DNA of 64,000 nucleotides from an uncultured Methylophilaceae bacterium (GTDB lineage Bacteria; Pseudomonadota; Gammaproteobacteria; Burkholderiales; Methylophilaceae). The position numbers and the translations under genes were made by a program. Below the pieces are notes generated by a model. That model was given only the letters and a program-made list of their open reading frames with translations. It did not search any database and was not told the origin of the DNA. Location: assembly GCA_964620425.1 (NCBI GenBank), contig CAZUGV010000008.1, positions 3,628-67,627 on the forward strand. Direction: 5' to 3'. Shown in pieces: positions 47,577 through 50,431 of the stretch (positions within the stretch are counted from its first letter, which is position 1; each line of letters begins with the position of its first letter).

Positions 47577-47818
47577 ATTTAATTTAATCCTTGTGTGCTT
47601 CCGAAATATGAGTATGCAAGTATAGCAAAGCTTTGGTGACAAAGTTGGGGTTAAACATTTCAAATATCAATTCTAAGAAATTGTAAATATTTTTGATCTC
47701 AGTCAAAATCTATAGGAATGAAATGTGCTTGATTAAAAGTGTGACTTAAGGAATTGTTGCGAAAATATTAAATGCATATTTCCTTACAAATGACATCGAG
47801 TTTAATAAGGGGAATAGT

Positions 47819-50431
47819 TTGAAATTAGAAAAAAGCCGTCTAGAAGCCTATATGAGTAGGCTGAATCAACATCGCAATTCAATATTTCAATTACAATCTG
47901 TATGGGATAATCTTTCATTGCTTGCACAGTTGTCGGGTACGGGCACCGATATGACGCAAACTAGAGCTGCATTCGGTGCGGTGACTAATGATGTGATTGA
48001 TGATCTGTCACAAGAAATGTTAAAAAAAGCCATCAATCGATTGGCATCTAAAGCCTATGTCACTATCAATATCGTGATTCGTAATTTGTTTGAAAGAACT
48101 GCAGATATAGGTTTTTTAGCAACGGATGATGATATACGCGATTTTTTGACCAAGCATTTGAATGGGATATCCACTCCGTCAGACAAAATCAAGCTATTAG
48201 AGCGATTTGATGAGTATGTCAAAAAATATTCGGTGTATTCCAATATTATTTTATTGGATACGAAAAGCAACGTAATTGCACAATTGGACAAAAGTAATAC
48301 TGTCACTAAGTCAGAGGATATTTTGATACAAGAGTCCATTAGAACTGAGCAAGCCTATGTGGAAACTTATCGTCATTCTGACCTGCTTCCCGATGAGGCG
48401 AAATCATTGATTTACTCATATCGAGTAACCAGTGCGGGTGGCGGTGAAATATTGGGTGTGCTCTGTTTGTGCTTCCGGTTTGAAGATGAAATGGAGGGGG
48501 TGTTTCAAGACATTACCACAAAAGATGATTGGGCTGTAGGGGTTATGCTTGACCACGAACATTCTGTAATTGCAACCAGTGATAAGTATCAAATCCCATT
48601 GGGGGCTAAGTTAGAGGTTACGGAAGAAAAGCAGGATTGGATTTTGACAAAATTCGCAGGGCGTGAGTATATTGCCGTTACACGCAAGACTTCTGGTTAT
48701 CAAGGCTATATTGGGCCAGGTTGGCTTGGTCATTCGATGATTCCTTTAGAGCATATGTTTGAAAATGATTTAATGGATACTATTGGCGGTATTGATAGCA
48801 AGTTGCTAACAAAAGTGATGAGAAGCCCATCACTATTCACTCAAAAGCTATTGGATATCCCTAAGCAAGCAGCCAGCATTCAAAGTAAGTTGAATCAATC
48901 AGTATGGAACGGCAATATTTGGCAAACCAAGCAATCTGACGCACGTCAAAATAGTTTTTCTAAAGCATTGTTATGGGAAATTAGTAATACAGGCTTTAAA
49001 ACTCAAAATGTAATTGAAACAACTGTGACAGAACTTTACCAAACAGTGGTCTCTGTTATGCTGGAAAATTCAAGTTTTTTTGCTTTTCTCGCGGTTGATA
49101 TTATGGATAGAAACCTATACGAGCGAGCCAACGATTGCCGCTGGTGGGCTCTGACGACCTCATTTAGAAAGATTTTGTCAAAGCCCGCTAATGCTTCGGA
49201 AAAATTGGGTTACAGTAAAGTCGATCTGTCTGAAATTGAGAAAATATTAAAATATATCAATCAGTTGTATACTGTATATGATAATTTGGTTATTTTTGAT
49301 CGCTATGGCAAAGTGCTTGCTTGCTCAAACTCCAATTACAATGAATGTGTAGGCTCTATTATTGAAAGCGAATGGGTGAGTAGGGTAAAGGGCTTAAGAA
49401 CATCGCAGGAATACGTGGTTTCAAGATTTGAGCCATCACCACTTTATAAGGATAAGCACACCTATATTTATTCTGCGCCTATTCGCTCACCCGATAACTT
49501 ATCAATTGTAGGTGGTATCGGTATTGTGTTCGATAGTGAGCCCCAGTTTAAGGCAATTTTGAAAGATATTGTACCTAGAGATGACAATGGTAAGTTGATT
49601 GAAGGCAGTTTTACTCTATTTGTTGATGGTAATTTAAACGTTGTTTCTTCATCATCTAAAGAGTTTGCTGTAGGTAGTGAATTTAAAATTCATCCTGCGC
49701 TATGTAAAATGGATCCAGGTAACTCGGCGTTTGATATAGCTGTTTATCAGGGGAACTATTATGCGATTGGTGCGCGAGCATCTTCTGGTTATCGCGAATA
49801 CAAGGGTGTTGGAGATGACTATAAAAATCAAATGACGGCGATGATTTTTATCCCATTGGGGAATGCAGAAACAATTGATGACCTGATTCAGGCAGATTTA
49901 GCGATTCAGCACAATGAGTTTAAGCCAACCTCAACCAGCGTGGTCGGCACTAACACTAAAGAGTATGCGACTTTTTATGTTAATGGTCAGTGGTTAGGGA
50001 TCCCAACAAACAACGTGGTAGAGGCGCTGCAAGATGTCCATGTGCGTTCTATTCCAGATACGATTAGCAGTGTTGAAGGGGTATTCCAATACCAAGGTAA
50101 GGTAATTCCTGCGGTTAACTTGGCGAAAATGATGGGGATGAAAAATTCGAAGATCTCAGAAAATATGCAAATGATTGTGATACAAGCTAATGATAATTCA
50201 TCTGAAACGGCAATTTTAGTGAATGCGTTAGGTGAGATTCCGCCTATTGACGAGGCAAAGATAGAACCTATTACCAATATTTTTAATAACACCAAAAATA
50301 ATGTGGTTGTTGGGGTCACGCCCGTGGCGACACATGATGGTGACTCGAAAATGCTGACAGTGCTCTCGGCAGAAAATCTTTTAGTTAGAAGTAATGCTCA
50401 GTTCGGAAGAGAGGAGCTTTTTCAGACCTAA
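47819..50431 (+). CDS. soluble multi-sensor protein: two tandem double-Cache-like modules fused to a C-terminal CheW domain
   Basis: 870 aa with a TTG start and an AAGGGGA SD. The internal duplication is visible by eye (RNLFERTADIGFLATD at aa 88 against RNLYERANDCRWWALT at aa 431, with following blocks also matching). The CheW-like domain runs from about aa 715 (EYATFYVNGQWLGIPTNNVVEAL...VFQYQGKVIPAVNLAKMMG). No hydrophobic stretch is long enough for a TM helix. Confidence 0.75.
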   Translation: MKLEKSRLEAYMSRLNQHRNSIFQLQSVWDNLSLLAQLSGTGTDMTQTRAAFGAVTNDVIDDLSQEMLKKAINRLASKAYVTINIVIRNLFERTADIGFLATDDDIRDFLTKHLNGISTPSDKIKLLERFDEYVKKYSVYSNIILLDTKSNVIAQLDKSNTVTKSEDILIQESIRTEQAYVETYRHSDLLPDEAKSLIYSYRVTSAGGGEILGVLCLCFRFEDEMEGVFQDITTKDDWAVGVMLDHEHSVIATSDKYQIPLGAKLEVTEEKQDWILTKFAGREYIAVTRKTSGYQGYIGPGWLGHSMIPLEHMFENDLMDTIGGIDSKLLTKVMRSPSLFTQKLLDIPKQAASIQSKLNQSVWNGNIWQTKQSDARQNSFSKALLWEISNTGFKTQNVIETTVTELYQTVVSVMLENSSFFAFLAVDIMDRNLYERANDCRWWALTTSFRKILSKPANASEKLGYSKVDLSEIEKILKYINQLYTVYDNLVIFDRYGKVLACSNSNYNECVGSIIESEWVSRVKGLRTSQEYVVSRFEPSPLYKDKHTYIYSAPIRSPDNLSIVGGIGIVFDSEPQFKAILKDIVPRDDNGKLIEGSFTLFVDGNLNVVSSSSKEFAVGSEFKIHPALCKMDPGNSAFDIAVYQGNYYAIGARASSGYREYKGVGDDYKNQMTAMIFIPLGNAETIDDLIQADLAIQHNEFKPTSTSVVGTNTKEYATFYVNGQWLGIPTNNVVEALQDVHVRSIPDTISSVEGVFQYQGKVIPAVNLAKMMGMKNSKISENMQMIVIQANDNSSETAILVNALGEIPPIDEAKIEPITNIFNNTKNNVVVGVTPVATHDGDSKMLTVLSAENLLVRSNAQFGREELFQT

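Follow-up and report, generated by a model that had tools for sequence, protein, structure and literature searches.

A cytoplasmic tandem double-Cache sensor fused to a CheW domain in Methylophilaceae, a candidate intracellular input to chemotaxis arrays

Introduction

Chemotaxis arrays are thought to draw their input almost entirely via receptors, and CheWS of Treponema denticola is, to our knowledge, so far the sole characterised sensor grafted onto a coupling protein. As reported by Muok et al. 2023 (PMC10653840), this first CheW-fused sensor to be characterised joins CheW to a CheR-like S-adenosylmethionine (SAM) sensor and is anchored in the array rings with the sensor below them; the same source lists 30 unstudied CheW architectures, 12 of which have input domains. 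Vass et al. (10.1101/2022.05.07.491035) mention only rare CheW fusions, with PAS among the partners. Here we analyse a gene at positions 47819-50431 of a 64,000-nucleotide stretch from an uncultured Methylophilaceae bacterium (NCBI GenBank assembly GCA_964620425.1, contig CAZUGV010000008.1, positions 3,628 to 67,627 of the forward strand; the whole stretch is called the window below), whose product, termed here the Cache-CheW protein, carries two tandem double-Cache (dCache)-like modules in front of a CheW domain.

The initial annotation of the window, made from its letters and open reading frames (ORFs), had presented a sensor plugged into arrays through CheW as an unusual input route; that assessment gives way to the precedent of CheWS (PMC10653840). 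Sensor-fused coupling proteins are already known, and the Cache-CheW family is very large and unstudied. We see about an even chance that the Cache-CheW protein is a conditionally expressed cytoplasmic sensor, tethered by a CheW-lineage domain into the baseplate of F-type arrays, whose Cache modules would modulate kinase output from beneath the rings.

Results

Architecture and predicted structure

The ORF encodes 870 aa from a TTG start codon, which is credible because, in alignment, the nearest relatives begin ahead of the internal Met12. Its double-Cache plus CheW architecture is confirmed, and the gene and its product are divided as follows.

47807..47812 (+): Shine-Dalgarno sequence AAGGGG, 6 nt before the TTG, read from the sequence
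47819..50431 (+): whole ORF of 870 aa with tandem dCache-like modules and CheW (profile searches, AlphaFold2 (AF2), Foldseek, dN/dS 0.06-0.07 vs nearest relatives)
47855..48757 (+): sensor module 1, aa 13-313, built of a helical hairpin, a long helix with RNLFERTADIGFLATD at its end, and two lobes, the distal one PAS-like and the other proximal (dCache_1 hidden Markov model (HMM) at aa 88-222, AF2, duplication E=4e-18)
48758..48940 (+): inter-module conserved helical segment, aa 314-374, with the LNQSVWNGNIWQ motif (15/61 columns invariant, 52 homologs)
48941..49906 (+): sensor module 2, aa 375-696, with a long helix that has DRNLYERANDCRWWAL at its end, plus a distal and a proximal lobe (Cache_WalK above cut-off; hhalign to the mini-MCP module, see below)
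49907..49954 (+): variable, low-confidence linker, aa 697-712 (predicted local distance difference test (pLDDT) 56-64; 0/16 invariant columns)
49955..50386 (+): CheW domain, aa 713-856, of the CheW lineage, with QYQG in place of the NLRG hairpin and the motif LVxALGEIP (Pfam, PDB matches, Foldseek, alignments)

The internal duplication of about 340 aa that had been noticed by eye is recovered by BLASTP between aa 33-301 and aa ~396-678 (E=4e-18, 24% identity over 291 columns), and every motif pair quoted in its support falls inside this alignment. Among the Pfam profiles, CheW (PF01584) matches aa 716-856 with 73 bits against a cut-off of 23.5, Cache_WalK (PF23846) matches aa 472-569 of module 2 with 29.1 bits, just over its cut-off of 27, and dCache_1 (PF02743) matches aa 88-222 of module 1 with 30.1 bits, under its cut-off of 45. 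The AF2 model, computed on an alignment of 52 homologs (mean pLDDT 83.5, predicted template modelling score 0.76), gives each repeat a helical hairpin, a long helix with RNL[FY]ER..D at its end and two lobes, the distal one alpha/beta and the proximal one beta; the predicted secondary structure runs parallel in the two modules, both of which keep the full dCache fold at high model confidence. In Foldseek comparisons with the PDB, the CheW part, which has the two-subdomain beta-barrel of CheW, is closest to 2ch4_W (template modelling (TM) score 0.84), 6s1k_C (0.80) and 2qdl_B (0.77), and the sensor part resembles periplasmic dCache domains with TM scores of 0.6-0.71, such as those of DctB (3e4o, 0.66), PctA (5t7m, 0.70) and 8w7p (0.71), along with Mlp37, Tlp3 and TlpA. 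Of the two proposals of the initial annotation, the CheW identity of the last 150 aa or so holds up by profile score, PDB match and fold alike, and the tandem double-Cache-like modules hold up by fold, with profile scores on either side of the cut-offs. A reading of the helical hairpins as degenerate tips of methyl-accepting chemotaxis proteins (MCPs) was rejected, as hhalign lends it no support.

Likewise sound is the description of the product as a soluble protein lacking transmembrane, HAMP and MCP regions: hydropathy gives no transmembrane helix (the Kyte-Doolittle-19 maximum is 1.57, in a segment with E, N and D, compared with 2.68 for PssA), no signal peptide is seen at the charged N-terminus, HAMP, MCPsignal (PF00015), REC/Response_reg and kinase profiles of Pfam give no match in the protein even at E<=10, and there is no Pfam match to a CheR domain.

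The same Cache module on a bare receptor tip

When the sensor part alone was searched in 401 genomes of the phylum, it returned 6 full-length members and 10 single-module proteins of ~370-460 aa. The five single-module proteins that we examined are all soluble and start with a minimal MCP hairpin tip (…KMLALNALIEAARAGxQGxGFAVVAxEV…; PF00015 at 43.9-72.3 bits vs a cut-off of 34.6) that leads directly into a single Cache module (DRNLYERTCDVRWWAT … YTVY.DL … G.VIA … GVLGIHFDW). These proteins, called mini-MCPs here, are exemplified by the following genes of ~360 aa.

L030, 3534-4613 (-): mini-MCP
L031, 3714-4796 (-): mini-MCP
L032, 3556-4668 (-): mini-MCP
L033, 3378-4475 (-): mini-MCP
L034, 3771-5003 (-): mini-MCP

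The mini-MCP Cache module aligns with aa 421-665 of the Cache-CheW protein (hhalign probability 99.9%, E=6.8e-31), and the tip region of the mini-MCP profile has no hhalign match anywhere in that protein. Module 2 is the closer of the two modules (E 1e-19 to 1e-24, vs 1e-11 to 1e-17 for module 1, which has lost several motifs common to module 2 and the mini-MCPs) and has the lowest dN/dS, so that it is probably the ancestral-like sensor. One sensor module is thereby found on two components that dock at the baseplate, and this is the strongest argument for its working at the cytoplasmic face of arrays. The ~65 residues between the tip and the Cache helix of the mini-MCPs leave little room for methylation helices. 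The mini-MCP family comprises more than 5,000 clusters (Tardiphaga, Bradyrhizobium and Rhodopseudomonas) with no annotation beyond MCP, and its genes, like the Cache-CheW gene, lie away from che genes; none of the 401 sampled genomes has both architectures.

A formaldehyde-taxis MCP of Methylobacterium aquaticum, MtpA (maq22A_c14925), is cytosolic and has the MCP signalling domain as its only detected domain (PMC10613068). This description fits the mini-MCPs, and MtpA may belong to the family; a primer-derived 21-mer of MtpA has no match in the 401 sampled genomes. If MtpA were a mini-MCP, the Cache module could be a sensor of one-carbon (C1) metabolites in methylotrophs.

Co-occurrence with F-type chemosensory systems

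The genome of the window encodes an F-type CheA-CheW cluster with MCPs beside flhC, a CheA/MCP/CheW cluster on contig C6, a Pil-Chp-like cluster and cheV, with 9 MCP signalling domains in total. We sampled 121 Methylophilaceae genomes, 32 with the Cache-CheW gene and 89 without, taking PF02895 at E<=1e-19 as the marker of F-type CheA. MCPsignal matches are present in all 32 carriers, at least two in each, and at least one occurs in 57 of the 89 non-carriers; F-type CheA is found in 29/32 carriers vs 27/89 non-carriers. The gene is absent from all 19 genomes with a single MCPsignal match (mostly PilJ-type) and present in about half of the chemotactic Methylophilaceae genomes. Of the three carriers without a match to F-type CheA, one is an assembly that is 88% complete, one has another CheA type and one has 8 MCPs, with ChpA as the marker's only match; among carriers from other families, F-type CheA is present in 5/5. 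Such a distribution is what a relation to a necessary partner would predict, short of proving it. Dependence on the second che cluster, that of C6, was also considered and rejected, since some carriers hold only F-type and Pil-Chp systems.

Affinity of the CheW domain

The best matches of the CheW domain are the CheW of T. tengcongensis (E=4e-16) and the own-genome CheW on C6 (E=3e-13), with PDB CheW matches down to E=5.9e-11, and CheA-P5 and CheV reach only E~1; judged by these similarities, it is a domain of the CheW lineage, with 22-24% identity to the CheWs of its own genome. In an alignment that takes in three PDB CheWs and all seven further CheW-like domains of the genome, its V733, E735, L804 and I807 stand at E. 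coli V36, E38, V105 and V108, each kept or conservatively replaced, and the glutamate equivalent to E38, which in E. coli pairs with R62 where receptor and kinase are coupled, is kept in 48/52 family members. The position of E. coli I39 is taken by A736, an alanine that is nearly invariant in the family.

Family, conservation and history of the locus

With clustering at 90% identity, the Cache-CheW protein has matches in more than 3,346 clusters; the best 120 of these are nearly all 855-940 aa long and, where named, are called 'chemotaxis protein CheW'. Relatives occur in at least 537 species-representative genomes, with carriers in Methylophilaceae (including Methylobacillus flagellatus), Gallionellaceae, Thiobacillus, Sulfuricellaceae, Rhodocyclaceae, Methylomonas, Deferribacteres, Desulfovibrionaceae, Campylobacterales and one Planctomycete metagenome-assembled genome. 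Across 52 homologs, the frequency of the majority residue is 0.60-0.80 in the sensor parts, 0.50 in CheW and 0.39 in the linker; the most conserved element is the helix at aa 375-444 of module 2 (28/70 columns invariant), and many aromatic and charged residues of the distal lobes are invariant. Against two relatives at 81-83% identity, dN/dS is 0.05-0.09 for all three parts, with dS near saturation, and lowest for module 2 (0.045-0.055), by which measure all parts of the window copy are under strong purifying selection. A search with module 2 alone for other architectures gave mostly fragments of the full-length family. P0124 (463 aa), P0240 (407 aa), P0166 and P0188, which lie on long contigs, may represent a genuine architecture of one Cache module plus CheW rather than fragments.

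The gene stands in the order leuA-pssA-gene-tgt-yajC, and a profile search detected no other CheW-like or MCP domain on its contig. Its placement between pssA and tgt, away from che genes, is therefore as first stated, and the label 'orphan' suits that distance from che genes but not the family, which is very large and conserved. This order is kept in five other genomes from three genera, where the protein is 60-63% identical, and other relatives lie in unrelated contexts. A congeneric genome (G021:C1; L029 1501-3559) keeps leuA, pssA and tgt but has pssA and tgt as direct neighbours, 93% identical to those of the window and ~100-150 bp apart depending on the tgt start chosen; it has no Cache-CheW copy elsewhere and possesses 5 MCPs and an F-type CheA. 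This clear-cut presence/absence polymorphism marks the gene as accessory.

The Cache-CheW gene is lower in GC than its flanks (0.37 vs 0.42 at third codon positions; 0.37-0.40 vs 0.43-0.47 over whole genes), and its closest relatives (81-83% identical) occupy a different locus from that of the syntenic ones (60-63% identical). Together, these observations suggest that the gene may have been replaced at, or transferred into, the same site.

Upstream region

Two elements stand out upstream of the gene.

47693..47706 (+): palindrome TTGATCTCAGTCAA, which agrees with the FNR/CRP-family consensus TTGAT-N4-ATCAA at 9/10 positions, found by three-way upstream alignment
47714..47729 (+): weak sigma-54-like -24/-12 element AGGAATGAAATGTGCT with GG-N10-GC spacing, orthologous to TGGCCTAA(A/T)TTGTGCT in L053 and L054

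In L053 and L054, the two nearest relatives, the palindrome has no mismatch, and the form conserved in all three sequences is TTGAT-N4-(A/G)TCAA. It stands 8 nt ahead of the GG-N10-GC element, at about 41 nt from where transcription is implied to start; the upstream regions of the window gene and these two relatives show no conserved -10 hexamer. Given the weakness of the GG-N10-GC element and the presence of an FNR/CRP-type palindrome, the promoter type is ambiguous in the sub-lineage of the window. All 11 of the more distant Methylophilaceae relatives (L018-L028), in three genomic contexts, have a sigma-54-type -24/-12 element of the form GGCAC/T-N5-TTGC at a fixed distance, about 45-75 nt upstream of the start (e.g., TGGCACgctagTTGCA, cGGCATagttgTTGCA), with scores of 12-15 of 15, where a shuffled 460-nt sequence reaches at least 13 with a probability of 0.0175. 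In members from other families, the elements (11-12 of 15) are suggestive only. The idea that the window's sigma-54 promoter had been broken by a 3-nt deletion was rejected as a misalignment, the correctly spaced weak element being present. A genome-wide sigma-54 scan for a regulon gave too few strong sites, and only a pilin gene stood out.

In the same genome, cheV (G000:C2:167394) has a near-consensus sigma-28 promoter with 1 mismatch (TCAA-N15-GCCGATAA at -31), flhC (G000:C2:395739-396254) lies beside the main che cluster, and there are 7 true sigma-54 activators. The position of flhC and the promoter of cheV indicate an FlhDC/sigma-28 flagellar hierarchy in this methylotroph.

Discussion

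A sensor below the baseplate, and what weighs against it

If the Cache-CheW protein acts within arrays, its CheW domain would sit where CheW does in the baseplate rings of the F-type array, either those formed by CheA-P5 and CheW or those of CheW alone. Since the sensor part of ~700 aa precedes the CheW fold in the chain just as P4 precedes P5 in CheA, it would then hang beneath the baseplate as P4 does from P5. Binding of a cytoplasmic metabolite to the Cache modules could alter kinase output or array coupling and so bias motility by an intracellular signal that needs no dedicated receptor, and expression would be conditional, under the sigma-54-type promoter seen in relatives and outside the FlhDC/sigma-28 flagellar cascade. 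The co-occurrence with MCPs and F-type CheA and the fusion of the module to a bare MCP tip make docking via CheW, bypassing an MCP, plausible in an indirect way. More tentatively, and with some doubt on our part, a single family of cytoplasmic Cache modules with two interchangeable anchors (CheW and the bare receptor tip) might form a widespread, undescribed input layer under arrays that reports an intracellular metabolite to the kinase, here switched by sigma-54 independently of the flagellar hierarchy.

Several observations count against a place in the array. Where E. coli CheW has R62, the arginine of its NLRG hairpin, the window protein has Q759, and among 52 family members this column reads R 19, Q 15, K 6, G 5 and E 4; the N-x-R-G arginine is kept by 6/7 of the genome's other CheW-like domains, the ChpA-like P5 being without it. 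The canonical VVD strand is replaced by LVNALGEIP (family motif LVxALGEIP), and no other domain of the protein is as weakly conserved as CheW. With such divergence and low conservation, binding to CheA and MCPs is not to be assumed, and the partner could differ. The flexible linker at aa 697-712 argues for tethering over rigid signal transmission, the gene belongs to no che operon in the loci examined, and the co-occurrence is confounded by phylogeny and genome size, the CheA-less non-carriers being mostly small. Nor is there a sigma-28 promoter upstream of the gene, where the best matches have 4/12 mismatches (a 3-mismatch match lies within its coding start). Unlike cheV, the gene does not look late-flagellar, and its upstream sequence suggests that it is probably induced by a separate signal.

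Alternative roles

The variability of the R62 column, set beside the invariance of L804, G805, I807 and P808 across the 52 family members, implies that the receptor-tip groove carries a family-specific conserved surface, which would fit a conserved partner and not necessarily the canonical one. The lack of a conserved groove arginine and the family-specific groove motif are also what one would expect of a divergent CheW-like domain serving as a general-purpose adaptor for docking the Cache sensor on PAS-GGDEF-EAL proteins or another non-array partner, with cyclic di-GMP turnover as the output. Genes for PAS-(PAS)-GGDEF-EAL proteins lie within two genes of the Cache-CheW gene in 21/78 loci; 15 of these 21 share one Methylophilus-type arrangement (L062-L075, L084) with a PAS-PAS-GGDEF-EAL gene directly downstream on the same strand, at a gap of 0-57 nt in 14 of the 15 (208 nt in one) that probably means co-transcription, and the rest come from four other lineages. 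Both nearest relatives (L053, L054) also adjoin PAS-GGDEF-EAL genes, in differing arrangements. Yet the window copy and its five syntenic relatives have no GGDEF-EAL neighbour, 57/78 loci have no GGDEF/EAL neighbour, and such genes are numerous enough for some chance adjacency to be expected; moreover, the near-strict restriction to genomes with F-type CheA and MCPs, and the mini-MCP fusion, would be left unexplained. On balance, we think a role as such an adaptor rather unlikely.

Two further roles deserve mention. The CheW domain might be a regulated decoy that titrates receptor tips or CheA off the lattice, so that occupancy of the sensor or induction of the protein would reduce array assembly or kinase coupling, an effect resembling the known inhibition by overexpressed CheW. 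Conditional expression from a sigma-54-type promoter in relatives, the dispensability of the gene (the congeneric genome without it has 5 MCPs and an F-type CheA) and the divergent CheW surface would suit this, and an appendage of 700 aa might hinder ring formation. However, large appendages are tolerated below the rings in CheWS and CheA (PMC10653840), and the mini-MCP relatives suggest real integration at the level of the tip. We hold a decoy to be improbable. The Cache modules might instead have lost ligand binding and act structurally, for example by recruiting another protein or, in the manner of ParP, by positioning or partitioning arrays. Conservation that peaks in helices (aa 375-444) and in the segment between the modules, and not in obvious pocket loops, together with the loss from module 1 of several motifs common to module 2 and the mini-MCPs, points in that direction; but both modules retain a full dCache fold, their distal lobes are rich in invariant aromatic and charged residues, and the mini-MCPs have no other candidate for an input domain than this module. 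A non-sensing scaffold appears very unlikely to us.

Relation to known systems

Neither the tandem-Cache-CheW nor the mini-MCP architecture was found described in the text of the literature searched; the dCache-CheW architecture may be among the 30 listed by Muok et al. As the Cache modules mostly fall under the Pfam cut-off, such proteins would be counted as plain CheW, and Cache sensor proteins are in effect hidden in databases under the names 'CheW' and 'MCP'. Compared with CheWS, the Cache-CheW family is far larger, with thousands of clusters in several phyla and at least 537 species, some of them tractable methylotrophs such as Methylobacillus flagellatus, and it employs a fold regarded as mainly extracellular. 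Its link to the mini-MCPs offers a concrete, testable hypothesis for how metabolic state could be fed into motility.

Like CheWS, the Cache-CheW protein has a CheW domain covalently joined to a sensor domain in one soluble polypeptide. CheWS provides an intracellular input to chemotaxis and its incorporation into arrays is demonstrated, whereas for the Cache-CheW protein we infer it. The sensor of CheWS is C-terminal, CheR-like and SAM-binding, and that of the Cache-CheW protein is N-terminal and made of two tandem dCache modules; outside CheW, the two proteins have no sequence relation. With periplasmic dCache_1 domains (DctB 3e4o, PctA 5t7m/5ltx, Mlp37 5avf, Tlp3 4xmq), the modules share the long N-terminal helix and the membrane-distal and membrane-proximal PAS-like lobes, but they are cytoplasmic, without flanking transmembrane segments, arranged in tandem, marked by the RNL[FY]ER..D motif and below the dCache_1 HMM cut-off.

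The canonical CheWs (E. coli 2ho9/6s1k, T. maritima 1k0s/2ch4, T. tengcongensis 2qdl) have in common with the domain described here the fold (TM 0.77-0.84), the Pfam family, the E38 glutamate and the hydrophobic groove positions. They differ in consisting of the CheW domain alone at ~160 aa (150-170), as against 870 aa with a sensor of ~700 aa, and in having R62 and the VVD strand where the Cache-CheW protein has a glutamine and LVxALGEIP. CheV (CheW-REC) similarly combines a CheW-lineage domain with an added signalling domain; there it is a phosphorylatable receiver, and here ligand-sensor-fold modules with no Response_reg match, and the cheV of the same genome has a sigma-28 promoter that the Cache-CheW gene lacks. 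The mini-MCPs, finally, share with the Cache-CheW protein the same cytoplasmic Cache module and a soluble form, and the two are set apart by number and anchor, one module behind an N-terminal MCP hairpin tip in the former and two modules before a C-terminal CheW domain in the latter.

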